Positions 3,201 through 45,884 of a DNA stretch of 64,000 nucleotides are shown piece by piece. The notes under the pieces were generated by a model. That model ran no database searches, was not told the DNA's origin, and worked only from the letters and a program-made list of their open reading frames with translations. This DNA comes from Amphiscolops sp. MND2022 (Eukaryota). Where the stretch lies: the NCBI GenBank assembly GCA_964187785.1, contig OZ076409.1, forward strand, positions 48,672,001-48,736,000, read 5' to 3'. Positions within the stretch are counted from its first letter, which is position 1; every line of letters starts with the position of its first letter. Made by a program: the position numbers and the translations under genes.

Positions 3201-6200
3201 AGCAGTTCTAACAATTCTGTATAACTTTTGAGATTTTCGAATGACTTTTGCACAGGGATGGCAAATTTGCGGTATTCAGCTACGGTTGCTGTGATGGACG
3301 GAAATGAATAAAAATAATTATTTTTGAACTTGTTAAAATAAAAATACCTATTCTGGAGATAACTAAAACTAAGAGCGTTTATTTCAACAAATCGTCAGCC
3401 AAATAAATTCGAAAAAAAAAACAAATCGAGCTAATTTCTAGAAATAACTTTGTCAAGTACCTTGGGCTACTGACTCAAAATATCGAAGAGTCCATTAAAA
3501 AAGCCATGTGCCACGTTTTGGCCTGATTATGGATGGCTAATTTATGCTTTTGTTGATATCCGTTCTTCGTTGAGAATAAAAATGGTTATTTCAGCGAAAA
3601 AAATGATAAAACAATTTTTTCCACCCTGAAAATGAAATAATTTATTTTAAAGCAATAAAAATATTCGAATAAAATATTGAACAGCCCTTGTTGTTGATGT
3701 TGTATTTTTTCGGCTACATTTGGACATCTAAAATGTTTTCGCTAAATCAATTCAGGGCGGAAAATACGCCATACCATCCCTGGTTCTCAATATTCAACTT
3801 TACTGATGATTAACGTTTGATTAAAATATAGGTATATCAACTTTTTTTTATTTCGGAGCTGGAAACTATTAAATTTTTCCAGCAGTTAGTTGGACTCAAA
3901 ATTATTTTTACTTTGGTGAAATAAATTCAATGTGTTGTCAGGTAACGCCCTTATGCTGAATCTGCTGGTGGCTATATTCAGCGAGATCTTCAATAAAGTT
4001 TTCGTCAGGTTAACCTTTCTTCCATAATAAAAAGTCATTAAATAACTTATAAACTGACAGTTAAGGGTTATAAAGACACCTATAAAGATTCCACTGTCTA
4101 TAAACTTACCCATCTCTCCTGTTTTTTAGCGTCAACTAAATCACGAGCTGTCCGAGTTCCATTTCATGTTTGATTTCGTAGCTTTTATGCGAAAATATCA
4201 AATTTTCATTCCGAAGATGAAATATCAGCAACCTTGTTTTCCAAAAATGGAAGGAAAAATTTTTCAATTGAGAGTTACGATCGAGACATTAATACCCCAG
4301 TCGAAACTTCAGACATTTTCTACATACTTCCAAAAATTACTTGCAAGATCATACTGTGATAATCCTCTTGTTCGGATTCTTCATTTGAAAGCTCTATTTG
4401 GTCTAAGTCTGTTTCAGTTTCAAAGAAGGGTTTAGCAGGATGTTTCAAGTCCTTCATTTTAGATGCTCTAAGAGGATAGTCGTCGTTCTCGGAATCAGAG
4501 TTTTCGTTATTGGATGCATGAACTCCTATAGATTTACTCAATTTGGATCCCGATGGTTGATTTTCTCGCATTTCATTTATATCCGACATAGGATTAGTTA
4601 CTGTGGATGCACTCTTATTAGACTTTATCTCCTTTAGAATCGCTTCAAGTTTGTTTTCCATTTCTTCTCTCATCTTTTCAATCCTATCGTTGTTCTTTTG
4701 TTCCATGATTTGGGTCCAAACTTGCATTTCATTGTTTATTTGACTAGGTTCGGTTAACTGGTTTTCAGAGCTATTTTCACCTAAATTTCCTTGGGCAACA
4801 TTACTAATATCAATTAAAGCTTCATTACCTGTTTTAGGGGTTTCTATTTGTGTTACCTCCACTTCCCTGTCTGGGGACGGTGTCTCAAGTCTTCTAGACC
4901 TTCGGCTTCTTTAATTCCCATGTTATTCTCAAGTGAAAATGTTTTCTGGCTTTTGGGGAAGAATTTGATTTAGTCTTATATCCCAAAAGAGAAGCAATGT
5001 TGGATTTTTACAGAGGCGAAATCGCAGTTTTACAGTTATTCGAGAAAGTAACTGCACTTGATGAGGATAGGATTCTTAATGAATCTCTCTGATTGAAAAC
5101 TTCGAATAAAATCCAAAAACCATGACACTCTTTTTTATGGGAGTCATCATATGAAAATCGAGACAAAAATAGAATTACGTCCAATGACGTTATATTATAA
5201 AAATAGCACAACTACATGACATCATAAAAGTATGATTGGGAAAAGAAACTAATGAACCCTGGGAGTCTCTAAAGATGGCCTTCTTTCGTAATTGAAATGG
5301 TTTCTAGATAACATTATAACACGTGCTGGATTTATTTAACAAGTCCTGCGAGAACCGTATAGTGACGAGTATGCGTCACAACTGGTTCCGCAGGATGCCG
5401 TAAAAAGTTTTTATGAAAAGCGCATAATGCCGCATACTCGTTACACCTTGAAACGTGTAATGCCGCATAATGATACTAGTAAAAACGCATAATGACGAGT
5501 ATACGTCACACCTTAATCCGCATAGTACCGCATAATTGTACTAGCTATGAAGTAGATTACTATCTGATGACGAATTTTGACGCATCAGGACCTTTAGAAT
5601 ATTTGATTAGACAATGAGATAACTCAATGCATGATCAAAACAAGGGTTCCCAATGAAGTAATGAAGGTATGTTAGCACTATGATGAAGGTCCATTCACAA
5701 TAACCATATTATAAATATCATATTTACATGACTTTCGAGACTAAACAGCATTGAGTTTTAAAGCATCATATAAGACGGGTTCATCAGGGTTTTAGCAAGT
5801 TTGTTGAAATGAGTTTATCATTCGTTCCTCTTCAAAGTTGCGCCACGGAACCATCGCATCTTGATGGATGCGACAGTCCCGCATTTTTAAAGAGGAACAG
5901 GGCTGCTTCAAATCCATGGATAAATGCTCTTGATCTAATCGCTCTTTCTTTCACTGTTTCTCCCTCGTATTCAGTTGCCATGAGGTACTCGCCCAAAGTT
6001 TCCAGCGCAATTTGATCGTAGCATTTACCACATATGTCGCAGTAACCCGCCACATTTGACATGACAGTTGGCAACAGTCTCATGCTTTGTCTCTCTCTTG
6101 CAGGGATCATTATGATATTCGTGCTGTGGGTCACATGAAAGGGAAAGCCCAACTGCACCATAGGTTGAACTGTGATCTGTTGGTTCTCAATGGGAGCTCC

Positions 6201-9200
6201 CCTCATTGGGATGGGGAAGAACGCGGGTGACAAATTAAATCCTTGCACAGTACCCAGAGGACCTTGTGACGGAGCTATATCTCTTTGAAGCTCTTGTTCC
6301 ATGGGTTCACTGAGTTGCGTGTGCTGAAAATCGGATGTCTCTGGCCTGTAGTTAGGTGGGTAAGTGGGGGTTGGCCTTGGCAATATTCCGCCTGCACTGG
6401 GGTTCACTCTTTGGATAGGGGGAACCCTGGCGGTAGGTCGACCATAATTGTTTGTTTCCTCAGGAGGGGTATTACCCAGCGTCCAGGGGAACAAATTCCC
6501 TTCTTCAAACTCGCTATCTATGAATGAACTTGGGGAAATCATCGTATCTTCTTGCGGTTCCCCTAACAACTCCATCAGGTCTTGTTCTATCTGTGTCCCT
6601 GTGGCACTTACAGACTCATTCTGTTCTGCTGTATTGGCCGGATCCACATATAACGAAGCCAATGTTGAGCCCATGAATGCTGACATCAGGTTACTCCCGG
6701 TTGTATTAATTCGAAATCTTTCGTCAAGCTGAGCGATATCTCCGGGAGCCATTGAGAAACTATTTTCTGACTCGCTCGAAATGTGCACCACATCAGGTGA
6801 TATTGGGGAGTACAGAGAATTCATATCAGAATTGAATTGGAGTTTTTCCATTTTAGATTTGTAGAGAAACCACTGAGTATTTCAGATTTTCAAGAATTTT
6901 AGAAGGCAACTGATTTATGAGATTGCAAAGACCATATGGTGATCGGTTTTCTTCTTCCTTTTGATTTTGGATGAAAACCCGCGGAAAAGTTGCTTGTCAT
7001 GTTCTGATCCTGCAGACATCCTTATAAGGATTTCGTAGGTAGTAGATTTTCGGGTTTCATTCACAACGAGTAGTAAACAATTTCCATAAACGGTGTTTCA
7101 GTTAACGCCTTTACTGATCATCACCCATCATCAAAGCTTAAAGCTTTCTTCATACGTTTAAATGATAGATAAACAAATTCTTCCTAACTTCAGAACAACT
7201 AACCAGGAAATATGTTCATGGAAATATTCATTGAAACAACTCAAAAGTGAACTCATTTATTCTTACATGACTAAGTTTACATGAAAATGAAGGATGTCAA
7301 AGTGAATGTTTCATTTCAGTTTCACATCTTTACGGAATCAAAGTTTATTTTTAAGAAAAACATAGTTTAACCCCAGTCCCGCATTTGAAAAGTGCAGCAG
7401 GGTTTGTACTAAAGCAAATAGGTTTTCATGTTTGTTGGTAATTCCAAAAAACTTGTAAAATGTACCAGCAGTCTAGACTTCTAAAAACATATCAAAATCA
7501 TAAGAGCGCCGGTCTTGTATTGGCACATTATTAATATCACACATGTCTTGCCATTAAGAGTATGTAGTTTCTTCATCATATTACATAATACTATTCCATT
7601 CATACGCTTCTAATCATTGACGACATTAATCCACTCCTTTTAAATGCATTCAGCGAAAACCGCATGATGCCGAGTACGCGTCACTACTCAATCCGCATAC
7701 TGCCGCGTACTCGTCACTGCAATTCCGCATACTGCCGCGTACTCGTCACTGCAATTCCGCATACTGCTGCGTATTCGTCTTCAGTCGATCCTCATAATGC
7801 CGTCTACTCTAGCATATAAATCATTCCAATTTGGTTCATATTAACGCATTTGCATGTATTTTCACACCCAGATCCACAATGAGCCAATCAATCACGCTGG
7901 CAGACGTAATTGATATTGAATTAGCCAATCAGATTCCAGTATTTCTTTGCACTTTTGCGCAAACTAGCATCATTTGCTCTTTGCCTTTGCCTTGTTACGC
8001 CACGCCTTTGGTACTTCATCATTTGTCAAACAGTCATATAGTTAAAATAGTACATCAGTCCAGAGTTCACAAAACATTGCAGTTCAATCTACTCCTTTTA
8101 ACCTTCACCGATTTCAGCTTTATTTTCAGCCTTTTATACTTTGTTTGTGGAGTATATATTTTATTTCTTAACCACAATCCACTATCCCCTTCTTTGCATC
8201 ATTTACGGATGGAGGGAAAACAGGAACAGAGTTTATCTGGGGAGAAAGGGACGCAAGGGGAGCAATCACCTCGTCGTTACGGTGGAGGGAGGAATTATAA
8301 TCCATCTTTCTGGTCTGATCCAGGCAAGTCCAACTTTCAATATAATTCTAGTTTGGTTGATTCAGTGAAATTTCGGTTTGTTGAGTTGGCCATACTCATA
8401 CGTGAAATAGATCCTTGTTCATCGGATCAATTTCAGATCCTTTTGAAACGTTTCCGTTTCCAATTTCTAAGTGGCTTCCGGTTTTCATACATTTCCTGTC
8501 CCCGCGTCCGGTTTCAGTCAATTTAAGCGGCTTCCACTTGCATAATTTTGTTTTGTTAACTGGATCATTTGTTTCAGTTGAACTAGAGGCCAGTGAATTA
8601 CATTCAACTCAATCCCCGGTCAAGGTTTATACACCTCTGCAAACATCCTCTCCTAAATTTCCTGTCATCTCAGAAACACTTGAATCCCCAAGTATTCCTC
8701 CGCTTCAAATCCATGAAGAAATTAGTGTGGAAACTACAATCGAGAACACCCCCGTTGATACTCCAGTGACAACCGGGGCTAATCATCAAGAATACACAAT
8801 TGAAAATAACCGCACCACTACTCTAACCAACTCTGAGCAAGAAACGACCCCCACGGGAGACATGGAGAGCTCCTATGCAAACATTAGTCGTGAGATAGTG
8901 GAAAGTTTCATGGATTCAGAAACAGCTCAGGCCTTTTCTTCACATTATAGCCAATACCTACCTCCAGGAACTGGTTCTGGGCTTGAACATGCTATGACCA
9001 ACGTTACGGAGCAAAATGTACCACCCCATAATGAGCTTCCAGAACTGTCTCCAGCTGACGGAGGCAACTTCAGTAATGTTGTGATACAAGATGCTGCTCA
9101 TAGCAGTATTAACATCACTAGGAGGGAGATCCTTGCATTAACTAGAGTCCTGGAACGTATCCCACAAGAGTATGTCCTCAATGAAGAGACTAGAGAAGGT

Positions 9201-12200
9201 CAGGCTTTGACCCTAACCATTGTAAACGATACTGAAACTGCTCCCATCGTCGCCTCATCTAGTCAAGAGGAGGTTGGACAGCCTGTTTCGTCTGACGTTT
9301 ATCCAGATGAATTACAAGGAGGACACTCAATGGGAAGAGGAAAACGTCGCAGACCAAAATATTCTTTGACTGGAGCTATGCTTAAGAAACATCCATTTCT
9401 GGGATTCTCTGCCACTGGCCCCATCGACAAAGACAAAACACCACACAAATGGTGGTGTCGGGTATGCAGGGTAGAACTTTCTCTAATGAGTAGAGGTAGC
9501 CTTGAATTACTATCTCACTACAAAACCGAGTCTCATTTAGTGAAGGAGCACCGGATGCGCATGGAGATACCCGGTATGGCCCTCTTCGACGGAGAAGGAC
9601 GGGAAATCTATGGAATTTCACTGCAAGAAGCCAAGAAAAAAGCCAAAAACAATTACCCAATCGCTCCTCGACTCGACGTATGCCGGCCCCTTGTGGGACA
9701 AGAGTCTGTCCCAGATTTCAATGCTGCTACCAACCCCACCGATAAAGTACTGTCGCAGATCTGCATACTCGAGCACGGACTTCGCCATGGTGGGCACATC
9801 AGAAGCCTTACTGGCAACTATGATGAACTGTCTCGTCTTTCCTCCAGCAGCGGGATGTGTGAACAGAATTGGAGCCCACAGCGACTTTTTGTTAGTAGTT
9901 CTTTCTCAATTGACAGTATTCATTTTCTTTCTGAACCGAATTTCCTTCATAGAAATCCCTTTAATATAAGTTTATTTACTGTGACTAAGGAACATTTTGT
10001 TTGTCTCATATGGAATTTTCGTCTACATGTTCCGAGAATTGGTTGGATATTGTGTCACTGCGATCGCTACATCTGGCCATTACTCTTTCGCTTTGCAACA
10101 TACCCCAACAGCAACGTATCTAATCCTCAACTTCTGGTCGGGGAACGTATTACAGCACGTATGCTTGGGAAGTGGACCACGGGGAATGTTGATGCCAAGG
10201 AAAACCCTGATGACAGTTTCATCATTCATCAGCCTCTTTGAGGAAGCTCCATCTTGTGTTGCCCTCATTGACTTCAGTGAAAAGTTAAGTGAATGTCTAT
10301 CAAACTGTCTCCCAGGAAAACAGCAATCTTCCATTGTCAGTTCATATGGGCCAGAAGAGTTTGAGAAGAGCCTTGCGTTACCAACTTCTCAAATCATTGA
10401 GCGCCACGACTTTCGAACGATATTAGAATTTCTCTTAATGAAGTTGAGAACGGCTTTGGACCGAGATTGGTTAAAGAAGTTACCACTACTACACAAAGTA
10501 ATTAAAATACTATATTCGTTTTACTTAAACGTCTAAGTTTCCGAGGTATGATTTTCCTTTTCTTTTAGTGTGTAGTCCGCTTGGAGTATTCTCTTCAGGA
10601 TGCATCATCGATTATAGAGGCTTTATCCAATAATTGGGATCACGTGCTTGACCACCTTAATCAAGTCGCGAGGCTTCCTGCGTATCGCTTCCATATGCGT
10701 GAGGTTATTTGCTCTCCTTTACCATGTTTCCTTTGAGACCAAAAATACGTATTTTCCTTATCTTCATGTTATCCTTTCGTTTTAGCCAAGCACTTTGGAT
10801 GAATGTTTCCGCCTCGACACGGCTTACCTAGCCCGCCTCTTCGTCATCCGCTGTGTCCTAGACCATTGTTAGTTGTTTTGTATCCATACCACCTATTGTT
10901 GTAACAGTTTCTAAGTATTATCATTCCCAAAACTCAAATTCCTCTTTGTAGCAGACTTTTCATTTCTCCGAAAATCATTGAAGCACAATTAGTATATCTT
11001 TCCTTTCACGGTATATATAATGGTGCATAACCATTCTGCTGGTTGCGAATAGTGACGCATGTTCGCTGTATCTCGTTCCACATTGCTCTGTATTGCCATT
11101 CAGCTCATTCCGCATAATGGTGTATAATCATTCAACTGATTCCGCGTAGTGACGTATAGTCGCTACACCTCGTTCCGCATAGTGACGTATAGACATATAG
11201 CTGATTCCACATAGTGACGTATAGTCGATACACCTCGTTCCGCATAGCGACGTATAGTCATCCAGCTGATCCCGCATAGTGACGTATAGTCGCTACACCT
11301 CGTTCCGCATAGTGACGTATAATCATCCAGCTGAGTCCGCATAGTGATGTATAGTCGCTATACCTCGTTCCGCATAGTGACGTATAATCCTTGATTATTC
11401 AGCTTTAATGTGTCGGTTTCCACCGTAGTAATTCCGCACGTGTTTTATGGCGCTGATGCTTTCTTCAAATCAACTCTTGTTCTTTTCGTTTTGTGAAAAT
11501 GCAGGGCTATTGTATACTTAACTTATTTGTTGTTTTAGACAACTCAGCGTTCTCTGAAGTTCAGAAGAGTGTGGATTGTGGATTTCGCGCCTTCAGTCAG
11601 TTTACCATTTTTATTTACTCCCAGCTTCAGAGTATTTTACCGGATTCCTCGCTTGGGAATATATCGGATTGGGACAATTTTTTGCAGCTTGATTTAGATC
11701 AAGCAGACTTGCCATACAGAACCCCGGACGAGTATGTTCTCAACGAAGATTTTCACAAATTAGTTACTGCGAGTAAATTGCCACGTCCCAGCAAGTTCGT
11801 TGAACAGTGTATTTGCTTTGTTAAATCTTTTTGCGGACAACTATTGGAACATGGGAACATCAAATCTAGACTCATCAGAGGACTGTCAGCATTTGATCCT
11901 GCCGTTATCCTTGTTGGACCGGAAGCCAACTACACGGACGCTATTGAAAAACTGACAAGCCATTTCGTCTCTGTTAACTTGATTACTTCAAGTGTGAAAG
12001 TAAAGGTTGTTAGTCAGTACCGATCATTAGCAGTTAAATTGCGATCCGGGGATTCTCCAGAGTACGATGATTGGATTACGTTTCTGACTTCTCACTATGA
12101 GCTTCAATGTAGACCCGAACTGTTTCAATTGTTCAAGTATTCATGTTTATGTTTGCCTCCACGTGTTGTAATGCCTCCAGAATTTATTGTTCCAATGGCC

Positions 12201-15200
12201 GATTTAGAGTCTGGTGAGGAAAACTTTCAGTCTTGCATAAAAAGTCTTCAGATGTCGTACAGCACTATTCCACATGTTTCCAGCCTGTATCGGGATCCCA
12301 AATCAGTGAGTCGGGTTTTCCGCCTCCTGGGTCGTGGAGCCGATTTATTGGCAGATAGAAAATTTTCCATCTGGAATTTCATGAGGGGGAGTGCTACCCG
12401 TAGAACATCATTGTTAGGAAAACTTGAAACTGGTTATCGCAAGGCTGTTTTGCAACACGATAGGCCAATTGTTTCGTCGACTACAACAACCCCCAGTGTC
12501 AGCAGGACTGGAAGTGTGAACAGTTCTCCTTCACCTGATCCTAGTCTGAGCAGGATTAGTGTATCGCTTAATCGCTGTTCCAGTTCCTCAGTTGAAGATA
12601 CCGGCAAGAAATCCAACTCCAAGTTTGCGAAAGGCAAGAAAAACTAAATGTGAATTGCAGTGTATAATTGATTACTGTTTTCTTTCCATACTTTGTTTTG
12701 TTTGATGTCTGTTTTTGTTACGTATTTATCTTATAACAGGCTAGTCATTACTGATAAAAAACAGGCACTCTCCCTGATATTTATTAGAAGGAAAAGGGAA
12801 AAAAAGAAGATGTTTGTCTGTGATTTGTTCTAATATCTGTATGAGTCAGAGTAGTTTGGGTTGGGATTGGGGCGTAAGTTGTATTTTTCACCACGTGTGT
12901 TTATGGGTTTTAATTGCAATGGAGTATTTTGGGAGTTTTCTGGGGTTTTTTGGGTATCATCAACTGGTGAAATACTTGGTTCTTTTTGAGTTTTTTGGGA
13001 ATTTTCATCATCATCACTGATGTGTTGTGGAATTTCATTTTCGTGATTGTCGTAATTTTGATCTGGTTCAGTGGTCTGTTCCACTGGGCTCCCCCCACCA
13101 TTTTTTGAAGATTCAGGGGAGGGCGGGTGGTTATTTTCGGGGATTTGAATCGGAGCATATTCAGCATCGTCAGTGTCCTGAGAAAACTCGGACGGCCCGT
13201 CTTCAAACGGGTTCGTTCCAAAATTTGTGTTCCATGATTGGGCGTATAGATCATCATTTGCTATAGGCGTTTGATCATCTTTTTGCCAATCAGTTTCACG
13301 AACAAAAATATCTGCCAATGGGGCTTGTGGAATAAATTTCCTGAGCTGGATCCTGTGTAGTAATGCGTTTTGTTAGTGCCAAGTCTCCGGACAATATAAT
13401 TATTGTCAGGGAGTACTTTTTCCACTTTATATGGTCCACACCATCTGAATTCTCGGAATGGTATTTTTGTCGCTTGAGTATCAGCTTTTGGGTTGAGGAT
13501 GTAACAATAGTCCGTCGTTTCGAGCGGAGCTGCTTTTGCTTTCCTATCATAGTAGGCTTTGTATTTGAGATAAGATTGCATGATGTTCTTCTTAGTTTGA
13601 TCTAGAAGGATTTTCATACGTTTTTGGATTTCTTCAGCCACATCAGTCTGTGGTTGGTATCGTGGGTTAGGGTTATATCCAAGTTTGTAGTCTAGGATAT
13701 TATGTGGTATTCTACCATGGAAAACTCGTGAAGGCTCGCAACCGAGTGATGCATGATACGTTGTATTGTGGTTTAGAACTGCCAACGGTAGATACTTATG
13801 CCAGTTATTCCTGAATTCGCCTGTTGCAGCTTTCAGGTGTGTTTTGACTGAAGCATGGGTTCTCTCAAGGAGTCCTATCGTTTGAGCATGTTTCATTGTT
13901 GCGTGTTTAAGTTCAATTCCTAGCACTGCTGCAACTTCATGCGTTATTTGCGCATTGAATTGAGTGCCTAGATCTGTGATTATCGTTGTAGGAAGGTAAG
14001 TGTGTTTGCATAGTATGTCCATGATAACTCTTGACACCGTTGTTGCATTGATGCGAGTTACAGGGTAAGCAAACAAATATTTTGAGAAGACATCTATCGC
14101 CGTGATGATATGGTCATAGCCTCCGCTTGGGGGGAGGTTTGGCAAAATATCCATTTGCAGAATGTCCTCTGGCCCAAGATCCCATTCTGGGCAGTTTAAG
14201 AGTTCAGTTCTGAGAAGATCATTGTTAATGCGTTTTGTTTGGATACACACTTGGCAGTTACTGACCCCTTTTTTGATGTATTTAGCCATACATGGGTAGT
14301 AGTATTTTTGTCGGGCTTCTTGAATCATCTTGGTGATTCCTGGGTGGTTTGAATTGTGACCATGTAGGGCTTGAAGAAATTCTTCTAGCAGTTGGATCGG
14401 TAAGAGAATTTGGTAATGAGATATGGTTCCTGTGTCAGTGTAGTATTTTCGTGTAAGGACTTCCTGTTTTATTTTTATTCGGGTTATATTTTGTAAGTAG
14501 TGTTGGTATCTATAATCGGACGCCAATTCGTTTTCATCAAATGGGTTTCCTTCAAGTTTTGCTCTCAGATTTCTAAGGACGATGTCAATGTTCTGCTCGA
14601 GGCGAATTCTTGCATTATCCTTAAAGTATCCTGATGAGATTGAGATCAACCCCGATGTGGATTTATGAAATTGTTGTAGTTCAGAGACGTCAGTTTCTGG
14701 TTCATTGTGTGTTTCTGTTTGAGCTTGGTCTCGAATATTTTGTTTCTCTTCCCAAAGTTGATTTTCATCAATTTCATCTTCGGGTAGAATGTAAATTTGC
14801 TCTTCGTCTACAATTCCGGTTGATTGGATATTCACCTCAATAGCTTTGGTGTGAATGTCATTGCGGATTGTCATTTCTAGTTTTTCAGTTGGGTCAACTT
14901 CTGTTCTAGATAAGAAGTCAGCTGCTGTGTTCATTGATCCAGCAACATGAGCAATTACGAAATTATATTGTAAGACGTAATCGCACGCATTCCAGAGTGC
15001 TGGTGGAATCATTTTTGCTTGAAAAAAGCGAGTTACTGATCGATTGTCAGTGAAGACTATGACTGGGAAGGTACTTCCCCACATGAGGTGTCCAAACTCT
15101 AAAAATGCGAAATATATGGAAAGGAATTCTTTCGCATATATTGACATTTTAGTTTGTGTTGGATTAAAAGTTTTTGAACCAAATGCAATGGGTGCATACG

Positions 15201-18200
15201 TTTTTCGTTTAGATTGAAGTTTTTGGTTCGGGTCGTCTTCGATCATGATAGCATATCCTGCTGCTGTGAAACTTGCGTCGGACATGACTATAAGTTGTTT
15301 ATTTTTCAGTGGTTGTTTTAATGCTAACTGGCAGGAATTCTCCAGAAGTTTGTTGAGGTTGGTGAAGGCTTCTAGCAAGTTTGTGGGTACGTAGAATTTG
15401 GAGGTTTCTCTGAGGAGTTTGAAGAACGGAGAAAGTCGTTCTGAAAGGCGTGGTATGTAGTTTCGATAATAATTTAAAAATCCAATATACCTTTGTAACG
15501 CCTTCTTTGACTTGGGGAATCGGAGTTTTGATAGAAAATCTGTGACTTTGTCCGCTTGTGGGGCGACTCCGTCTGGTGTTATTGTACGCCCTAGGAAGTC
15601 AACTTGTTTGACTCCAAAGTGACATTTTGACATGGAGAGTTTTAGTCCTGCATTGCGAATGCATTCAAAGAGAGTTTTGATATTTATGCAGAGTTGTTTT
15701 GTGTCGTTTGCCGCTATGCCAATGTCATCGACATATTGGGCACATTGGTCAGCTTTAATTGCTCGATCTAGGTACTCTCTCATAAAGCTTGAAAATGCAG
15801 AAAGTGATCTAGAGAGGCCTTGAGCAAGACGACGATAGGCAAATGTTCTACTGGCAAAATTAAAGGCTAGCATTTGGATGGATTGGTAATCGGCCATCTT
15901 GAGGCAGTGATAAGCCTGTGAGCAATCCACCTTGCAGAACAGTTCCTTTCCTGCCATATGTTGTGCTGCATCTGATAAAGTGCTTACCGGGTGATTGTTA
16001 TTGGTGTAATCTTCAGTGATGAGGTTGTTAATCTTTCTGAGGTCTACTAAAAGTCTAAGACGTCCGTTGGGTTTGCGCTGTGCAAAAATTGGGCTGGCGT
16101 ATTTGGAAAAAAGTAAAGTTGTAATGATACCGTACTTGTGTAGAAGTGCGAGTTCTACTGTGATATCATCCTTGAGATTGATAGGAGTTGGCAGACTTTG
16201 GCTGTAAGCAGGTCTGTCATCATTCGGTGTTAATTTCACTTTGAATTCGCGGTTTATTCCTATATCGAAACGATGTCTGGCAAAGATGTCGTGAAATTCG
16301 ATGAGGATTTCCTCAATTTCTTGTCGTTCGGCTGGGCCGAGTGTTGTATCAGACCAGTCGAAGTTTGAAAGAAATGTTGTTCTTGAGGAATCGTTATCAT
16401 TTGGGTTTAGTTTCTCGAGTTCTTGTAGTTCAAGAAGCTCTTGATAGATGCGTTGCTGAATTGGGGTATATGTTGCAGGGTCGCCTGGTTCATCAGGAGT
16501 AGGGAACCAGTAGGTCTCCTGTTCGGGATTTTGTTGTGGTACTTTAAGAAGTTCATTTATGTGGACTTCTGTTGTTTCTTCGTGTTGAATCATAAACGAT
16601 AACAATGCAGGGTCCACTGGTTGTATATGTTTGATTTGTTCTGGTGTTAAAATCTTGAAATCTGCTAAATGGGTGTCCATTGTAATGGTGTATGGTAATT
16701 CAGAGAAGTTGATGATTTGATAGCCGATAGCATTGTTGTTGACAGTACTGAGCGATGCAGTGATGAAAATGCTATCGTGATTTTCATATTGTTGCGATGG
16801 GGTGACTATGCCGGTGGCATTATGATCCATCAAATGGGGCAATCTGCTTGCGATGGCGAGTGTTTCGCCTGGTTGTAAGGTGTAGGTATTTTCAGCAAAT
16901 AATGGTGTTGCTTGCCTTATTGATGTTTGTGTTTCTGGTTTAAGTTGCATTGATAGATAGGGGAAGGTTAGGATACCCTGTGTAACATCGAAAATTGCGT
17001 TATTTCTCCGGAGGAAACACAATCCGATTAGTGGGTTCGGTAGATTTTTCATGATGATGAGGTTTTCTTTTAACATGAAGTCAGCCACTTCAAATTCTAG
17101 TAGTACCGTACCGATGGGGACTTCTAGTTGTCCATTTGCCACCATAATTTGGAAGTTCGGTGGGGGACCGGTTTCTTTTATTGCCTCATTGGCGAGCAAT
17201 TTGATTTTGTTGAGGTCTTGTTCTGAGATTGCACTTGTGAGAGCTCCAGTATCAATGAGACCATCAAGCGTGAGTTTTTCGAAGTCCATCGGAATGTAGT
17301 ACATGTGGCGTTTTCGCTTCAGTGTTAAAGAGGTTGAAATTGGGAGATATGATAAGTTTCGTTCCTTATCAAATTGTATATGTTCTGTGAGGTCTTCATT
17401 TAGAAGAGGTTGTTTCTCATTATTGCAATAAGTTTTTATTGTTACGTGGTGTTTTGTTTTGTGTTGGGTTTCTGAGTTTGGGTCGGTTTCGGGGTTGTTA
17501 GATTGTTGAGGAAAGTAGTTGTCTGGTGCATCGTGTAAGAGTTCGTATAAGTCTTCAGGTTGAGTTTCCAGAGTTAGTTGTTGTATTTTTTCTGTTATTG
17601 AGTCGGTTTCACAGGCTGATGTTTTTGTAGGTTTTGGGCTCAACTGATGCTGCCAGTCATCAATTGAGTTTGGTTTATGTGGTGGTTTTGTGTAAAGGCG
17701 TGGCGTTTCTAGTTTAAATCCTTTGACGAGGATTGTTGATGTTCCAGTTTTGGTTTAATAGGTTTTTTGGCTTGTTTGTAGTCTTCAATGACTTTTTTCT
17801 GGGCTTCTGTAAGGTTCCATTTGGTTGGACGATTTTCCATATTGGCTCCGAAGTAGCAGTTTTCTTCGTCATGTCCTGGGGTATTGCAATTTTGACATTT
17901 TTCGGATTCCGGATCGTCCTCGAGTTTGCGCCGTTTAGCTAATTTGGGACAGTCAGTCATCATGTGGCCTGTCTCCTTGCAGTAACGGCATTGGTCGTTT
18001 TTGAGGGTTTTATCTGGTACTGTGTTTGGGGTTTGTTTTTTGGTTTTGTCAGTTTGTTTTTTGTTGATTTTTTCAGTATTTTGTTCCTTTTTAGTAACGG
18101 TCATTTGAGTTTTGACGAGAGTGTCGTCTGCTTCTAGGCCGTTAAGTTCCATTTCTCTTTCAAGGTGTTTGACAATTTGATCGTAAGTGCCATTCTCAAG

Positions 18201-21200
18201 ATAAGCTTGGTTAATGGACTTTTTGAGGTGGGGAGGCATTTTGGCATAGAGTAGGTTCTCTATCATTTGGTGGGCATTGTCCCCGAACGCTTTTTCAGCA
18301 CTTTCTTGGAGTTCTTCTAAGAAGTCCGGAAGTTTTTGGTTTTCTGGGTCGAAAAAGAGTCTGTTGAATCTATGTTTAGCAGATGCACTGGACTCTGGTT
18401 TCACATATTTTCGGCGAAAGACTTTTAAAATGTCTTCCAGCGTCGTGGTGGGAGTTCTTTGTATGTTTTTGAAGGTTTTAAGTGCCAAACCTCTGAGATG
18501 GGCGTGGAAATGGTTAATTTTCATTTCCTCTGTTAAGTTTGGTTGCATTCGTAATGTTGTATGGAACAAGTCCTCAAAATATTCGAATTTCTCGTTTTTC
18601 TCATTTTTCCCATTGAAGGTGAGTGTATTTTTGGGGTGAAAAAGTGATTGGGGAGAGTTTTTGTTGGCCAATTTCTCGATTGCAAGAGCAATTTGATTAA
18701 CTGGATCAAGTGGTTGTGTTATTGAGTTCGTTGTATTTTGGACTGCATGGGATCCAATTGTATCATTTAGCTTTTGTGAGCTCTGTCTATGGAGTTGTCG
18801 GTTGGCTCCTGTCACCATGTGATAATCCTCTTGTTCGGATTCTTCATTTGAAAGCTCTATTTGGTCTAAGTCTGTTTCAGTTTCAAAGAAGGGTTTAGCA
18901 GGATGTTTCAAGTCCTTCATTTTAGATGCTCTAAGAGGATAGTCGTCGTTCTCGGAATCAGAGTTTTCGTTATTGGATGCATGAACTCCTATAGATTTAC
19001 TCAATTTGGATCCCGATGGTTGATTTTCTCGCATTTCATTTATATCCGACCTAGGATTAGTTACTGTGGATGCACTCTTATTAGACTTTATCTCCTTTAG
19101 AATCGCTCCAAGTTTGTTTTCCATTTCTTCTCTCATCTTTTCAATCCTATCGTTGTTCTTTTGTTCCATGATTTGGGTCCAAACTTGCATTTCATTGTTT
19201 ATTTGACTAGGTTCGGTTAACTGGTTTTCAGAGCTATTTTCACCTAAATTTCCTTGGGCAACATTACTAATATCAATTAAAGCTTCATTACCTGTTTTAG
19301 GGGTTTCTATTTGTGTTACCTCCACTTCCCTGTCTGGGGACGGTGTCTCAAGTCTTCTAGACCTTCGGCTTCTTTTATTTCCCATGTTATTCTCAAGTGA
19401 AAATGTTTTCTGGCTTTTGGGGAAGAATTTGAATTAGTCTTATATCCCAAAAGAGAAGCAATGTTGGATTTTTACAGAGGCGAAATCGCAGTTTTACAGT
19501 TATTCGAGAAAGTAACTGCACTTGATGAGGATAGGATTCTTAATGAACCTCTCTGATTGAAAACTTCGAATAAAATCCAAAAACCATGACACTCCTTTTT
19601 ATGGGAGTCATCATATGAAAATCGAGACAAAAATAGAATTACGTCCAATGACGTTATATTATAAAAATAGCACAACTACATGACATCATAAAAGTATGAT
19701 TGGGAAAAGAAACTAATGAACCCTGGGAGTCTCTAAAGATGGCCTTCTTTCGTAATTGAAATGGTTTCTAGATAACATTATAACACGTGCTGGATTTATT
19801 TAACAAGTCCTGCGAGAACCGTATAGTGACGAGTATGCGTCACAACTGGTTCCGCAGGATGCCGTATAAAGTTTTTATGAAAAGCGCATAATGCCGCATA
19901 CTCGTTACACCTTGAAACGTGTAATGCCGCATAATGATACTAGTAAAAACGCATAATGACGAGTATACGTCACACCTTATTCCGCATAGTACCGCATAAT
20001 TGTACTAGCTATGAAGTAGATTACTATCTGATGACGAATTTTGACGCATCAGGACCTTTAGAATATTTGATTAGACAATGAGATAACTCAATGCATGATC
20101 AAAACAAGGGTTCCCAATGAAGTAATGAAGGTATGTTAGCACTATGATGAAGGTCCATTCACAATAACCATATTATAAACATCATATTTACATGACTTTC
20201 GAGACTAAACAGCATTGAGTTTTAAAGCATCATATAAGACGGGTTCATCAGGGTTTTAGCAAGTTTGTTGAAATGAGTTTATCTTTCGTTCCTCTTCAAA
20301 GTTGCGCCACGGAACCATCGCATCTTGATGGATGCGACACATACATATCTTGTAAGATATTTTGGACAAATTTTAGCAGACCACACGAAAACTACAAAGA
20401 TCTCACACGATCAGACAGAAAGTACCAAGATCTGGCAAGTCACTTGGCAGAATAATGCATTAAAATTCAAGATCTTGTTCAAAGAGTCTGTGAGTTTATG
20501 TAACGTCCACCTAGCAGAGTACATCATAGAAGTGGGTGCCTAGGGTGCTTAAACAGGAGACCGTTGTCTTACTACAGCCCTAGACATTAGTTCTTAATCC
20601 CGAAATGGTCTCCTAAAAGGAACTTTTTCAAACGTCAAAGGAGGCTCCTCAGTTAGAGCTCCGTGGCGACGTGCCGGCGCACTCAAAGTCCGGACACGTC
20701 CCACAAGCCTGTAAAAACGTATCCTAACGTTTCTGCGACTCTACATACCTCCGAGGTCCGAAAACAGGGGTTTAGCTAAAGTACATTTTAATTAGGAGAA
20801 TAACGTCTAAAATAACAAAAAAAGGGGTTAAAAACACCAAACATCTGCAAAGACCATAAATACGGTACAACAGACAGAGGAAACATCAGGCGTCAGTGTC
20901 AGCTAGTCTTTGACCTGCTAGGTGGCACATGCAAAATAGGCAAACTTCTGAGTTTCTTCATCTTTTGGGTCATTCTTCGGGTTCTGCTGGTAGTTGGGAC
21001 GTCTTCCGAGGGAGATGGCACCACACGGCGTTTTCGGGGATACTTCTATGGCGGGGTGTTCTCTCTCAGGCTGGGTGGGGGTGTTTTTTTGTGCGTTTTT
21101 TTGCTTCTTTTATGATTTTCGGTACCTGCCGGATCGGCCATTTTGAATCACACATTTCGAATTTTTCAACGAAATTTTGTAATTTTCGTTCGGCGACTGC

Positions 21201-27149: not shown

Positions 27150-28535
27150 TTCCCTTCTAATGACTTTTTGTTATAGTTCTTTTCAACGCAATAGAAAGAA
27201 TAGCTAACCTAAATTTTCTTCTTCTGTGACTTTGCACCTTCATTGAGGTGTTTCTCTTCTATTTTGCTCCTCGCCATTACTATGTGGTTGGTGATCTCTC
27301 CTTAAGCATCACGGCCCACATAATTTGAAGTTTTCGGTCTGTTCGGTGCTGAAATAGTCCTACCAATTAGACAAATATGTTTTCCGTTTTTAACGATATT
27401 CGTTAATTTGGTTGTCGGTTTTTTTCCGTGGTGTAACTCGAACTGTGCTACTTTTAATACAGTATGTATTGTAGCACGCGTTACGCGGAGAGCTCGATTT
27501 ACACTTTCGGTTAAACTTATTCCGTCCTCTAAATTTGCTCAATGTTTCGGCTTTTGCAAAGTTGTCTATATTCTTTGGAAGTGAATGCCTCCACTTTGTC
27601 GGATTCTATCTTTTCTGGTATTCCGGACAAATCCAAATTTTCTCGATAGGAAATTCATCACCTCTTTTGTTTCTGAGGTTTTGCAGTTTTTTACGGTAGG
27701 ATGTTTGCTAAATCTGTCTACCGCGATCAGTATTGGTACACCACTGTGTAATTGTTTGTTATGAAGTTTTCCGGTAAAATCAATTTGTTTTCCTGGCCGG
27801 GTACAGTTAGTTTTTCAAATTTTTTGTAGTGCTTTTTCGCTAATTGGCATTTAAGGCAATTACTTGATGCTAGGCATGCTGTGTAGTTCTTCACTTTACT
27901 CTCGATGTCTTGCTTCATGTCCGGCCACCAAAATATTTTCGCTTCAGACGTCAGTTTCGTGATGCCGAAGTCACCGGAATGCAAGCTGTCAAGCTGCCGA
28001 TTAGACCGCGTCTAAGGTCTATTGGAATGACGATTTGGTCGTCAACGAATTTAAGGTCACATCTGATAGAGAATTTGTCGAAAACTGCTCGGTTGCCCTC
28101 CAGATTCGTTTCTCTGTCTTTTCGGCGCATGCTGTTTGTAACCCGTGTCAGCTCCGTCTTAGAGATTAGAGTCTTTAAGGCCAACAAGAACTCGAACTCG
28201 GCTTTCTTGTTTGTAGTAAGTTTTCCGACGATATGGTTGATTTGCATACACTTGGCTTCTTTCCCGTCGGTTGTATTTCGTTAGATTGACAATTGGTAGA
28301 TTGTCGCCCGGCAAGATTATGCTATTTTCTTCAATTTCGGCAGCCTCTTCTTCTTCGATTTCTCCTCTTCCCGTTTGTATTCCGGTTCATCTTCTTCCTC
28401 TACTACTATCAGTTGATAGCTGCCTCCAATTCTGTTCGCGCTCTGGATCAGTTCCGCAACAATTTCGGCGATTTCCTCTCTGCTCGGTTTGTTCTGCCGG
28501 GATGGTGCAAATACCGTTCTTTGTGATTGGTGATC
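27150..28535 (-). pseudogene. Decayed Gypsy-type pol (integrase) fragment
   Basis: Frameshifted pieces: IVIPIDLRR, then HSGDFGITKLTSEAKIFWWPDMKQDIESKVKNYTACLA (remnant of the HHCC zinc domain). Truncated by the satellite. Confidence 0.8.
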
Positions 28536-31500
28536 GACCCTTTAAAACATTTCAATTCAAGAAGATTGTCGAAATTTAAACAAAAATGCGTAAAAAATTT
28601 GAAAATTGAAAAATTTTGAGGTTTTTGTCATTTTCGGTGTCAATTTGAGACATTGTCACTCAAAATACTGTAATTAACTCCTCCAAAAAGCCTACTGGAC
28701 AACACATTTTTTCATTGTTGACCCTTTCAAGGTTCCGATCTATAAAACCCATTGAAATTTTGGAAAAAATCTGCAAAAAAGCTTTGGAAATTCGAAACTT
28801 TTGAGTTTTTTTGTCATTTTTGGTGTCAATTTGAGACATTTTCCTTCAGAACAATGCAACTATCTCTTCATTAAGGACTACTGGGCAACGAAATATTTCT
28901 TTGTTGACCCTTTAAAACATTTCAATCGAAGATGATTGTCGAAACTTCAACAAAAAATGGGTAAAAACTTTGAAAATTGAAAAATTTTGGGGTTTTTGTC
29001 ATTTTCGGTGTCATTTTGAGACATTGTCACTTGAAATACTGTAATTAACTCCTCCAAAAAGCCTACTGGACAACACATTTTTTCATTTCATTGTTGAGCC
29101 TTTCAATGTTCCAATCTAAAAAATTCCATTGAAACTGCGGGAAAAAACTGCATAAAACCTTTGGAAATTCTAAAAGATTGAGATTTTTGTCATGATTGGT
29201 GTCAATTTGAGATATTTTCATTCAAAACATTGCAACTATCTCTTCAATAAAGACTACTGGACAACGAAATGTTTCTTTGTTGACCCTTTAAAACATTTCA
29301 ATCGAAGAAGATTGTTGAAACTTCAATAAAAAATGCGTGAAAACTTAGAAAATTGGAAATTTTGGGGTTTTTGTCATTTTCGTTGAAAATTTAAGACATG
29401 TTCAAAATGGAAACTGCAATAAACTCTTCAAAATAACCTACTGGACAACACATTTTTTCCTTGTTGACCCTATTTAACGTTCCAATCCATAAAGTCTGTC
29501 GAAAATTTGGAAAAAAATGCATAAAATCTTTGAAAATTAGAAAATGATTGGGTTTTTGTAATTTTCGGTGTCAATATGAGATTTATTCATAGGAAAACAG
29601 CAATTAGCTATTCAAAAAAGCCTACTAGACAGCGAAATGTTTCTTTCTGACCCTTTAAAACATTTCAAACCAAGAAGATTGTCGAAACTTTAACAAAAAA
29701 TTGGTAAAAACTTTGAAAATTGGAAAGTTTTGGGGTTTTTGTCATTTTCGGTGTCAATTTGAGCATTGTCACTTAGAAAACTGTAATTAATTCCTCCAAA
29801 AAGCCTACTGGACAACACATTTTTTCATTGTTGACCTTTTTCAACGTTGCAATCTATAATATCCAATGAAACTTTGGAAAAAAACTGCATAAAACCTTAG
29901 GAAATTCTAAAATTTTGAGATTTTTGTCATTTTTGGTGTCAATTTGAGACATTTTCATTCAGAACATTGCAACTATCTCTTCATTAAAGACTACTGGACA
30001 ACGATTTGTTTCTTTGTTGACCCTTTTAAACATTTCAATTGAAGAAGATTGTCGAAACTTCAACAAAAAATGCGTGAAAACTTTGAAAATTGGAAATTTT
30101 GGGGTTTTCGTCATTTTCGTTGACAATTTAAGACATTTTCAAAACGGAAACTGCAATAAACTCTTCAAAAAAACCTACTACTGGACAACACATTGATTCC
30201 TTGTTGACCCTATTTAACGTTCTAATCCATAAAGTCTGTCGAAAATTTGGAAAAAAAATCCATAAAATCTTTAAAATTTAGAAATTGATTGGGTTTTTGT
30301 AATTTTCGGTGTCATTATGAGATTTATTCATAAAAAAACAGCAATTAGCTCTTCACAAAAGCCTACTAGACAGCGAAATGTTCCTTTCTGACCCTTTAAA
30401 ACATTTCAAACCAAGAAGATTGTCGAAACTTAAACAAAAAATGGGTAAAAACTTTGGAAATTGAAAAATTTTGGAGTTTTTGTCATTTTCGGTGTCAATT
30501 TGAAACATTGTCACTTGAAAAACTGTAATTAACTCCTCCAAAAAGCCTACTGGACAACACATTTTTTCATTGTTGACCTCTTTCAACGTTGCAATTTATA
30601 AAATCCACTGAAAAGTTTAAAAAAATCTGCAAAAAACCTTTGGAAATTCTAAAATTTTGAGATTTTTGTCTTTTTTGGTGTCAATTTGAGACATTTTCAT
30701 TCAGAACATTGCAACTATCTCTTCATTAAAGACTACTGGACAACGAATTGTTTCTTTGTTGACCCTTTAAAACATTTCAATTGAAGAAGATTGTCGAAAC
30801 TTCAACAAAAAATGCGTGAAAACTTTGAAAATTGGAAATTTTGGGGTTTTTGTCATTTTCGTTGACAATTTAAGACATTTTCAAAACGGAAACTGCAATA
30901 AACTCTCCAAAAAAGCCTACTGGACAACACATTCTTTCCTTGTTGACCCTATTCAACGTTCCAATCCATAAAGTCTGTCGAGAATTTGGAAAAAAATGCA
31001 TAAAATCTTTGAAATTTAGAAAATGGTTGAGTTTCAGTGATTTTCGGTGTCAATTTGAGATTTTTTCATCAAAAAACAGCAATTAGCTCTTCAAAAAAGT
31101 CTACTAGACAACGAAATGTTTCTTTTTGACTCTTCAAAACATTTCAATCCAAGAAGATTGTCGAAACGTTAACAAAAAGTGCGTAAAAACATTGAAAATT
31201 GAAAAGTTTTGGGTTTTTCGTTGTTTTCGGAGTCAATTTGAGACCTTGTCACCAGAAAAACAGTAATTAACTCCTCCAAACAGCCTATTGGACAACAAAT
31301 TTTTTCATTGTTGACCCTTTTCAACGTTCCAATCTATAAAATTTATTGAAATTTTGGAAAAAAACTGCATAAAATATTTGGAAATGCTTCAATTTTGAGA
31401 TTTTTGTCATTTTTGGTGTCAATTTGAGACACTTTCATTCAGAACATCGCAACTATCTCTTCATTAAAGACTACTGGACAACGAATTGGTTCTTTGTTGG

Positions 31501-33422
31501 CCTTTTAAAACATTTCAATCCAAGAAGATTGTCGAAACTTTGACAAAAATTGCGTAAAAACTTTGAAAATTGAAAAATTTTAGGGTTTTTGTCAATTTCG
31601 GTGTCAATTTGAGACGTTGTCACTTGAACAACTGTAATTAACTCCTCCAAACAGCCTATTGGACAACAAATTTTTTCATTGTTGAGCCTTTTCAACGTTC
31701 CAATCTATAAAATCCATTGAAATTTTGGAAAAAAAACTGCATAAAATCTCTGGAAATTCGAAAATTTCGAGATTTTTGTCATTTCGGTGTCAATTTGAGA
31801 CATTTTCATTCAAAACATTGCAACTATTTCTTTATTAAAGACTACTGGACAACGAATTGTTTCTTTGTTGACCCTTTAAAACATTTCAATCGAAGAAGAT
31901 TGTCGATACTCCAATAAAAAATGCGTGAAAACTTTGAAAACTGGAAATTTTGGGGTTTTTGTCATTTTCGTTGACAATTTAAGACATTTTCAAAACGAAA
32001 ACTGCAATAAACTCTTCAAAAAAGCCTACTGGACAACAGATTCTTTCCTTGTTGACTTTATTCAACGTTCCAATCCATAAAGTCTGTCAAGAATTTGGAA
32101 AAAAATGCATAAAATCTTTGAAATTTAGAAAATGGTTGGGTTTCTGTGATTTTCGGTGTCAATTTGAGAATTTTTCATAGAAAAACAGCAATTAGCTCTT
32201 CAGAGAAGCCTACTAGACAACGAAATGTTTCTCTTTGACCCTTTAAAACATTTCAATCCAAGAAGACTGTTGAAACCTTAACAAAAAATGCATAAAAACT
32301 TTGAAAATTGGAAAACTTTGGGTTTTTTGTCATTTTCGGTGTCAATTTGAGACATTGTCACTTGAAAAACTGTAAATAACACCTCAGAAAAACCAACTGG
32401 ACAACACATTTTTTCATTGTTGAGCCTTTTCAACGTTCCAATCTATAAAATTCATTGAAATTTTGGAAAAAACTGCATAAAATATTTGGAAATTCTTAAA
32501 TTTTGAGATTTTTGTCGTTTTTGGTGTCAATTTGAGACACTTTCATTCAGAACATTGCAACTATCTCTTCATTAAAGACTACTGGACAACGAATTGTTTC
32601 TTTGTTGACCCTTCAAAACATTTCAATCTAAGAAGAATGTCGAAACTTTAACAAAAATTGCGTAAAAATTTTGAAAATTGAAAAATTTTGGGGTTTTTGT
32701 CAATCTCGGTGTCAATTTGAGACGTTGTCACTTGAACAACTGTAATTAACTCGTCTAAAAAGTCTACTGGACAACACATTTTTTCATTGTTGAGCCTTTT
32801 CAACGTTCCAATCTATAAAATTCATTGAAATTTTGGAAAAAACTGCATAAAATATTTGGAAATTCTTAAATTTTGAGATTTTTGTCATTTTTGGTGTCAA
32901 TTTGAGACACTTTCATTCAGAACATTGCAACTATCTCTTCATTAAAGACTACTGGACAACGAATTGTTTCTTTGTTGACCCTTTAAAACATTTCAATCCA
33001 AGAAGATTGTCGAGACTTTAACAAAAATTGCGTAAAAACTTTAAAAATTGAAAAATTTTGGGGCTTTTGTCAATTTCGGTGTCAATTTGAGACGTTGTCA
33101 CTTGAACAACTGTAATTAACTCCTCTAAAAAGTCTACTGGACAACACATTTGTTCATTGTTGAGCCTTTTCAACGTTCCAATCTATAAAATCCATTGAAC
33201 TTTTGAAAAAAAAACTGCATAAAATCTCTGGAAATTCGAAAATTTCGAGATATTTGTCATTTCGGTGTCAATTTGAGTCATTTTCATTCAAAACATTGCA
33301 ATTATCTCTTTATCAAAGACTACTGGACAACGAATTGTTTCTTTGTTGACCCTTTAAAACATTTCAATCGAAGAAGATTGTCGATACTCCAATAAAAAAT
33401 GCGTGAAAACTTTGAAAACTGG
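28536..33422. repeat. Satellite array, ~185-bp monomers (about 26), with four monomer variants
   Basis: The anchor CTACT(G/A)GACAAC...GTTGACCCTTT recurs every ~183-187 bp. Confidence 0.95.
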
Positions 33423-35379: not shown

Positions 35380-36050
35380 TGATCTTTTCTGTTAATTCCC
35401 CCCCCCACGGTAAAGGCGGAAATTTTAATTCCCCACCACTATCCAGGGGTGTGAAATATTGTACTGGTTATTGTATTGTAGCTCACAATAACTTATTTTT
35501 ATTGCGTGCGCACAAAAACAAATAATTGTTTCAATAACTTGAATTATTTAAAGCAAACATAAATTATTGATCAACATCATCAACAATTATTGCTTATCAA
35601 CGACAGAAGAAACTAGTTTTGAGTCCCAGAAATCTTTGTTGAATTTCAGAAAAATTTGCGCTTCCACGTTAACTGGGGTCGTTTTCTTGGATAATCAGTA
35701 AAAACGGCACGAACGACACTAAATCGCATTGTATCGATCTGCGCTGTATGCGCGGCGATTCAGACTTTAAATTATTGAGCCATTGAAAACAATTATTGTT
35801 GCAATCAAACAAATTATTGCTATTGAATTTTTGCCTAAAAAAATAATTTTATTGTATTTATTGAAAATTATTTATCAATAAATTACTTATTTTACACCCC
35901 TGCCACTATCAGCGATGAGTTTTAGTTGCAGTTAGAGCTATTAAATACTGCAATTTGATTGGTTGTTACTATTAATTCAGTGATAATTTCACTTGACCGC
36001 TTAACTGGGGGGGAATTAAATTGGTGGGGGGGAATTAACAGAAAAGATCC
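35380..36050. mobile_element. MITE with GATCTTTTCTGTTAATTCCCCCCC terminal inverted repeats (Merlin-like termini)
   Basis: About 25-bp TIRs; TCCCTCCA(T) duplicated on both flanks (8-9 bp). Confidence 0.75.
35444..35902. mobile_element. hAT-type MITE nested in the previous MITE
   Basis: TIR CAGGGGTGT/ACACCCCTG; perfect 8-bp TSD CCACTATC (35436-35443 and 35903-35910). Confidence 0.85.
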
Positions 36051-36323
36051 TCCCTCCATATTAATTCAGCAAAGAGCACGTCTTGTTCCGCTTTCCAATG
36101 GTACAAAAATCCCACATTGAAGGTATCAACACCGCTGTAACATCCTTGTTGATGAGAGGAACTCTTGAATGAAAACTTCCATTAAAAGTTTATACTGGTC
36201 CGATTAACTGTTTAAACTGATTGATTACGCAAAAATAGTGTGAAGAATGTTTGTATCTCAAATTGAGATTCTCAATTCCAAACTCTCACTTTGAAAAAAA
36301 TTAAATTGATGGTTTCTAGTTTG

Positions 36324-39700: not shown

Positions 39701-39999
39701 CGTAGTCACTATTCCAAAGTTGAAAAAATATTAGAAAAATGTTTGAAAAGTACTACAACTAACCCATTGAACCTATTTTGGTTGGTGATATGCGAATGAT
39801 AATAGATATTTTTGCCAAAATTGAGAACTCAATTCGCTTCGGAAAACTGAGGATAAAGCACTTCGGAAACTTTTCCTCGTAGTATTGTCAAAAACATTTA
39901 TGTATTCTACAAAAAATTCAAATCAACTGTACGTGCTTTTTCTCGGGAGGCTGCCAACAACTTGCAACGTTAAACTTGCAATCATTCAACCCTCATAGT

Positions 40000-42825: not shown

Positions 42826-45236
<2,411 letters not shown>

Positions 45237-45725: not shown

Positions 45726-45884
45726 CCTATGTTACAATGTAAGTTTTTCGAAATTTCTTTTACCTTCGAATAATTTTCTACGGACAGGTTTCTTACCCAA
45801 ACCAATCTCAATGACGATAATTCAATTGAATTCCTCCAAATGAGATGTAAACTATTTCATGAATAATTGTCGCAACATGACAAT

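Follow-up and report, generated by a model that had tools for sequence, protein, structure and literature searches.

Accessory open reading frames (ORFs) lying antisense to gag-pol, between pol and the 3' long terminal repeat (LTR), have been described in the LTR retrotransposons Grande of maize, RIRE2 of rice and Retand of Silene (TRP28/PF04195), and as the gene brtn in Boty of Botrytis (PMC7264820, PMC11963269, PMC8365987, from the accessible portions of these papers). Such genes have been known for decades without an assigned origin or function, and the review, in its available part, describes the plant and fungal examples as being of unknown origin and without similarity to other transposable elements (PMC7264820). 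Here we describe a gene in the same position in an animal, within a Ty3/gypsy retrotransposon of Amphiscolops sp. MND2022 that lies in a 64,000-nucleotide stretch of contig OZ076409.1 (hereafter the window). The original prediction, made from the letters of the window, saw in it an intron-containing antisense gene for a domesticated, catalytically dead hAT transposase. Our analysis indicates that the gene is almost certainly real and under selection, and that its product is likely to descend from a cut-and-paste transposase.

Other mobile elements offer partial parallels. The targets of VANC21 carry same-orientation motif arrays in introns, between genes and in non-coding stretches at the termini (PMC5735166, as far as the accessible text goes), and VANC has been traced to a MAIN-like cellular protein (PMC13547354, in the part available). 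Spm TnpA and other transposase-derived regulators have also been discussed, with loss of the DDE triad presented as a way to arrive at a transcription factor in a single step; in the portion of that preprint at hand, the words "retrotransposon" and "LTR" have no whole-word occurrence (bioRxiv 10.64898/2026.08.24.746577). Among animals, LTR elements of bdelloids encode a GDSL esterase or a DEDDy exonuclease as ORF3 (PMC5408684, in whose accessible text neither "intron" nor "transposase" occurs), and a further case is planarian Burro (PMC6431247, accessible part). A search of the open literature, with Repbase, subscription journals and supplements outside its range, found no case in which an antisense gene of an LTR retrotransposon derives from a transposase.

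An intron-containing gene opposite to gag-pol

The gene occupies the + strand, opposite to gag-pol, and has six exons. Its spliced model has 1,079 codons.

8209..8323, + strand: exon 1; the ATG is common to the sister copies, and the donor is GC in the window copy
8578..9890, + strand: exon 2; a low-complexity acidic/Ser/Thr/Pro region of about 250 residues, a basic stretch resembling a nuclear localization signal (NLS), a C-x2-C-x16-H-x5-H finger and a helical region
9891..10011, + strand: intron 2; its acceptor is non-canonical in the window copy only
10012..10497, + strand: exon 3; helix, three strands, helix, strand, helix, strand (RNase H topology), then helices
10569..10703, + strand: exon 4, 45 codons, from the alignment of copies
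10786..10867, + strand: exon 5, 82 nt, from the alignment of copies
11539..12647, + strand: exon 6; an all-helical part of about 305 residues and a Ser/Lys-rich tail

Three junctions named in the original prediction (10497/10569, 10703/10786 and 10867/11539) are exact and phase-consistent in alignments of the copies. The two introns it had called probable were identified as well (intron 1 at 8324-8577 and intron 2 at 9891-10011), but each departs from the canonical form in the window copy: the donor of intron 1 is GC here and in the closest sisters and GT in more distant ones, and the acceptor of intron 2 is irregular here, although it is canonical in 19/19 other modelled copies and in 10/10 close sisters (two copies belong to both sets).

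Twenty of 21 copies could be parsed into gene models. Acceptors 2-5 are canonical in 19/20, 20/20, 20/20 and 20/20 of these and donor 5 in 20/20, tallies that stand above chance because the sites were located by a fixed offset from coding motifs, without a search for AG or GT. Donors 1-4 and acceptor 1 were found by patterns that themselves contain GT or AG, so that their tallies are circular, and the evidence for them is provided by alignments of 12 and 15 rows. In these alignments of 12-15 copies, exon frames and splice positions are constant and the introns differ in length and sequence. In addition, a database protein (P0146; E 1e-19) aligns as one unbroken ORF over the junctions of exons 4/5 and 5/6.

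Since its own intron-2 acceptor is non-canonical, the window copy probably does not yield the full protein. Six of the 20 gene models have a frame of more than 1,000 residues (the window copy being counted across its acceptor), eight are broken and six are without a located first exon. Decay of pol proceeds at a similar rate, with a frame above 1,200 residues in 9/21 copies.

Intron 1 also holds a non-coding block of 80 bp (8441-8520) that is better conserved than the exons on either side of it: identity to 11 sisters is 86% in the block and 54-62% in those exons. Its minus strand is rich in GGAA/CCGG words, and it could be a candidate promoter, splice or packaging signal.

Conservation of the gene as part of the element

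Exon 6 has at least 111 scored matches in the genome, at 62-100% identity and mostly with open frames. When 20 sisters were picked across this identity range, 18 showed the layout LTR-gag-pol-antisense gene-orf3-LTR, and 14 of those 18 had readable 5-bp target site duplications (TSDs), all different. Intermediate loci conformed in 6/6 cases. At distant loci, where exon 6 is 20-27% and pol 48-63% identical, pol lies at the same place in 8/10 and the LTRs mostly measure 1.6-2.5 kb; the remaining two had no gag-pol within the fetched span. More widely, a profile search of 1.84 billion proteins returned 274 clusters, of which the 10 looked up bore no informative name, and one distant match (P0148) is itself a large family in the Amphiscolops genome.

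The ratio of nonsynonymous to synonymous substitutions (dN/dS) is 0.01-0.09 in the folded regions, in the two unsaturated pairs among the seven for which values were printed, and 0.20-0.44 in the disordered N-terminus; the corresponding values are 0.05-0.07 for pol and 0.09-0.10 for gag. The shared layout and the low dN/dS of the folded part bear out the predicted association: the gene is an integral, selected component of the retrotransposon.

The component does not seem bound to a single backbone. Quick trees of the reverse transcriptase (RT) and of exon 6 recover the same deep groups and are discordant or unresolved inside the clade of the window copy, and in one pair of copies dS in pol is 0.27, yet the antisense genes are saturated. 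Taken together, these sequence comparisons point to exchange of the antisense cassette between gag-pol backbones. Four loci (L047, L049, L097 and L109) carry the antisense gene without a pol of its own alongside in the 20 kb fetched; at L047, part of gag and orf3 are 93-95% like the window copy and exon 6 only 63%, so this locus is likely recombinant.

As the original prediction had reported, there is no pair of terminal inverted repeats (TIRs) with a TSD around the gene. The perfect inverted matches found there are of 8-11 bp and none is flanked by a TSD, and each of the 15 copies checked has inverted matches of 9-13 bp whose sequences are unrelated. A nested hAT element was rejected on the grounds that TIRs and an 8-bp TSD are missing and that the gene is in place in sister elements.

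Protein fold and probable loss of the catalytic residues

Predicted structures comprise a C2H2 finger, an RNase H-like core and a large helical part. The finger residues noticed in the original prediction (C332, C335, H352 and H358) are near-invariant, being conserved in 26/26, 25/26, 25/26 and 26/26 rows, and the YSFALQH stretch, which it had proposed as the place of the first aspartate, is the first strand of the core. hAT transposases have a C2H2 finger, helices, a five-strand core and a long helical part, in that order. In Foldseek searches, the hAT transposase Hermes was the first match for the core and ranked 2 of 48,161 for the last exon, and the two halves are colinear, the helical part of exon 6 aligning weakly with Hermes 367-609. 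Of the matches to the core, only those with the transposases Hermes, ISCth4 and P reach 116-161 residues and take in the long helix that precedes strand 1.

An assignment to hAT specifically is less firm. All structural scores are weak, and the transposases of ISCth4 (IS256/Mutator type) and of the P element fit the core about equally well. In Pfam scans for the hAT profiles (PF05699, PF14291), 0/98 members matched in one set and 0/52 in another; profile-profile comparison (hhalign) with the hATs of this genome gave E values of at least 0.26 and revealed no sequence link. The finger has no zf-BED match in Pfam and pairs with the hAT finger only at E 0.26, and the ESM comparison provides only a lead toward hAT. 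What stands of the predicted identity is the best or near-best solved match to Hermes in both halves; what does not is a score or a sequence link that would single out hAT. We consider descent from a DDE transposase with a helical insertion likely, and an origin in hAT specifically an evenly balanced question. ZBED, ZNF862 and CGGBP1 are hAT-derived proteins domesticated by hosts; the antisense product is a probable member of the hAT-derived proteins.

The catalytic sites were assigned from strand position in the predicted structure together with the general consensus. Of the 28 rows, none has D at the end of strand 1, where Q (17 rows) and E (7) are found instead, and the site after strand 4 shows G (14), D (7) and N (6), so that no acidic residue is conserved at the two expected aspartate sites in exon 3; the region expected to hold the glutamate has no reliably acidic position in the family alignment. 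In contrast, all three D/D/E residues are invariant in the control, the genome's own hAT ORFs. Two further hAT motifs, C/DxxH after strand 5 and ERxFS, are absent from the family alignments, whereas ERxFS is seen in hATs of the same genome. The loss of catalysis put forward in the original prediction is thus upheld in the form that no triad is conserved and, given descent from a DDE transposase, the protein is very probably catalytically dead.

The host element and its CCGYATA arrays

The minus strand of the window holds, at 4355-20339, a complete and young element of about 16 kb (15,985 bp). Its LTRs of 1,522 bp are 99.3% identical and, with TG...CA ends, a 5-bp TSD (CATAC), a primer-binding site (PBS) and gag followed by a protease-RT-RNase H-integrase pol, they place it in Ty3/gypsy.

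4355..20339, - strand: full-length Ty3/gypsy LTR retrotransposon, with LTR pair, TSD CATAC and gag-pol
18818..20339, - strand: 5' LTR, 1,522 bp; gag begins in it, with about 190 of its codons, and a + strand cluster of CCGYATA lies at about 19819-19992
4355..5875, - strand: 3' LTR; CCGYATA cluster at about 5355-5528 on the + strand
18806..18817, - strand: PBS TGGTGACAGGAG, within the gag reading frame
17709..19387, - strand: gag, with Ty3_capsid-like and zf-CCHC matches and its start inside the 5' LTR
12830..17754, - strand: pol (protease, RT, RNase H, integrase), domains in this order by Pfam
5832..6851, - strand: orf3, second accessory gene, in gag-pol sense, conserved, terminating inside the 3' LTR
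7660..7779, + strand: tandem array of 32-bp units with 3 CCGYATA, between orf3 and the antisense gene, whose starts diverge
11027..11389, + strand: tandem array of period 32-33/65 with 7 CCGYATA, in intron 5

The pol of the window copy is frameshifted near its 3' end (about 13260-13370, - strand). A 21-mer joining LTR end and PBS occurs 695 times in the genome of 1.07 Gb, and the reversed control 0 times; the 12-mer of the PBS is near-identical in distant subfamilies. The PBS lies inside gag because gag begins inside the 5' LTR, and about 190 gag codons (18818-19387, - strand) are consequently repeated in the 3' LTR (4355-4920, - strand), a layout also found in sisters and in distant subfamilies, with LTRs of up to 2.5 kb. 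The C-terminal part of orf3 contains a CxxC; dN/dS is 0.22 in the single unsaturated pair, and the gene has no Pfam match.

The word CCGYATA, often continued by TGACG, recurs in 32-33-bp repeats at three non-coding places: in the LTR, some 350-520 bp in from the outer end, in the intergenic region, and in intron 5. Across 18 copies of the clade, its density is 2.3, 5.1 and 8.5 per kb in these three parts and 0.02 and 0.09 in coding sequence. The arrays are present in 18/18 copies, and 273/280 motif matches are on one strand; in 8 distant copies, the corresponding regions, whose bounds are approximate, hold a single match. On contig C1, 50/74 exact 17-mers fall inside PBS-anchored element spans, against 1.2% expected, all in the same orientation. 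In two distant subfamilies (L103 and L107), a different word, GACGTCA, is enriched in the non-coding regions.

By analogy with known systems, the antisense protein may bind these arrays to regulate its own element, a proposal to which we give slightly less than even weight. The arrays, which the original prediction does not mention, lend some help to its idea of a DNA-binding protein. As a caution, co-occurrence of motif and gene does not amount to binding, since the two are linked. In addition, CpG transitions are barely raised in the element (a weak excess), which makes DNA methylation an unlikely form of the silencing that would be opposed. A search of the genome for cytosine methylases gave no Dnmt1/3-like protein among 5 matches, the two best of which (L123 and L124) seem to resemble Dnmt2 in a motif.

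Proposed origin, mechanism and alternatives

We propose that an ancestral gypsy element captured, at the DNA level and in reverse orientation, an intron-containing cut-and-paste transposase gene of the kind in which a helical insertion splits the RNase H core; hAT would be the likeliest donor, a Mutator or P type is possible, and the source may instead have been a host gene already derived from such a transposase. Introns antisense to the genomic RNA survive reverse transcription because they face away from it, and those of the antisense gene are kept in all copies. The cutting residues would then have decayed, and finger and scaffold have remained under selection. After splicing, the protein would enter the nucleus. 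There, probably as an oligomer, in the way that hAT transposases occupy subterminal repeats, it would bind the CCGYATA arrays that lie on one strand in LTR, shared promoter region and intron 5. By analogy with VANC and TnpA, the acidic N-terminal region of low complexity might then serve to activate copies of its own subfamily in trans or to shield them from silencing. The chain as a whole, from capture of a disarmed transposase to activation or shielding of the element, is a tentative reading that falls a little short of an even chance.

A role in integration would share this origin: the protein would bind the LTR motifs on new cDNA or chromatin and tether, import or target the integrase complex. 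The presence of the motif in both LTRs, hence at both cDNA ends, the basic NLS-like stretches and a selected RNase H scaffold fit this idea, but the densest arrays are internal (intron 5 and intergenic), where a tether gains nothing, the LTR cluster is 350-520 bp from the outer end and so away from the tips, and the TSDs have no common target sequence. Moreover, the pair with saturated antisense genes at a pol dS of 0.27 implies a gene not bound to one integrase, and we regard this role as quite unlikely. A self-limiting repressor, or a general counter-defence factor that acts as a decoy for host silencing proteins, with the arrays as sites of a host transcription factor, seems rather unlikely. 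The repeat unit does contain TGACG, which we take to be a cAMP response element (CRE)-like half site, two distant subfamilies show enrichment of the related GACGTCA, transcription converging on that of pol could in itself dampen the element, and change is faster in the antisense gene than in pol (62-99% identity in exon 6 where RT has 87-96%), as for proteins in an arms race. However, the CCGYATA half differs from a palindromic host site in its restriction to the clade and its strict orientation, the finger hardly varies, and a family with 695 junctions is very successful.

The remaining alternatives concern the protein itself. Its RNase H-like core could come from a host nuclease-fold protein or a duplicated integrase, the likeness to Hermes being a chance resemblance between common folds. 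We find this unlikely, given that only Hermes, ISCth4 and P lengthen the match to include the helix before strand 1, that the domain order is that of hAT, and that Hermes, named before the search, then came first or second in two separate searches. Finally, a passenger without a role for the retrotransposon, whether a nested DNA transposon or a decaying captured gene, would be in keeping with the many broken copies (including one splice site of the window copy), with L097 and L109, which carry the gene without gag-pol in 20 kb, and with L047 and L049, which have no adjacent pol of their own. This explanation is largely refuted and retains hardly any probability: TIRs and TSD are missing, dN/dS is like that of pol, place and orientation are the same across subfamilies whose pol is about 50% identical, and there is no catalytic triad for self-movement. 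Our preferred reading remains a captured, disarmed transposase that may act on its own element.

Other features of the window

Outside the element, broken ORFs on the minus strand at 57209-59603 match a Monjiviricetes-type viral fusion glycoprotein (E 3e-20); they sit in a strongly G-skewed stretch (53000-59000) and probably represent an env-like gene of another retroelement. On the + strand, a SET domain ORF at 44070-45236 ends in a run of 9-bp repeats, and a 592-aa ORF at 51090-52868 has a weak BRCT_2 match. Satellite arrays built of units of about 185 bp occupy 28448-33559 and 46012-47401, and several hairpin-like inverted repeats lie in 33600-47900.

Comparison with known systems

In this family, the origin of an antisense accessory gene can be traced, probably to a cut-and-paste transposase, and a candidate target motif is at hand, so that a single protein and a single oligonucleotide suffice for a direct test of function. 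Transposase domestication, so far a matter of host genomes and DNA transposons, would then also have benefited a retrotransposon, and the family could help to explain the continued spread of a lineage that has, in one clade, at least 695 copies bearing the internal region in a 1.07-Gb genome. More speculatively, and with odds clearly below even, the retrotransposon may have rebuilt the pairing of transposase and subterminal repeat as a private switch: the disarmed enzyme would read a subfamily motif and license its own copies or protect them from host silencing, protein and motif would co-diverge, and the cassette would be swapped between gag-pol backbones, an animal class I counterpart of VANC/TnpA made from a class II enzyme.

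As far as the available parts of the literature describe them, the antisense genes of Grande, RIRE2, Retand and Boty resemble this one in position, orientation, presence in most copies, core-gene-like conservation, nearby tandem arrays and a proposed role as nuclear DNA-binding regulators. They differ in being plant or fungal, whereas here the product has about 1,080 residues and a transposase-like fold, a second accessory ORF is present and arrays occupy three compartments; the TRP28 domain (PF04195) was not matched in the antisense product in our Pfam scans. The bdelloid elements and Burro, from the portions accessible, are likewise animal gypsy-like elements with captured non-env genes, but with enzyme-like ORF3s or polyprotein domains.

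The predicted structure resembles Hermes (PDB 4d1q, 8edg and 8sjd) in its N-terminal C2H2 finger, in an RNase H core with an apparent long helical interruption and in the weak colinear structural match. Unlike Hermes, to which it is about 10% identical, the antisense product lacks the D/D/E, the CxxH after strand 5 and ERxFS, is flanked by neither TIRs nor an 8-bp TSD, and has an extra disordered N-terminus of 290 residues and about 90 more C-terminal residues.

In its working, the system appears, by analogy, to resemble an accessory regulator of the VANC/TnpA type; it is not an active hAT element. VANDAL elements also encode an accessory protein with conserved and variable parts and carry family-specific same-orientation arrays (PMC5735166, accessible text); they are plant Mutator-like DNA transposons, VANC binding is demonstrated where ours is proposed, and VANC acts on DNA methylation, of which there is little sign here. 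TnpA, as presented in the available part of its source, offers a parallel as a non-catalytic descendant of a transposase that a mobile element retains for sequence-specific regulation. However, TnpA serves its own DNA transposon and retains only the DNA-binding part, and domesticated transposases serve the host, whereas here a retrotransposon would benefit and the whole scaffold has been kept.

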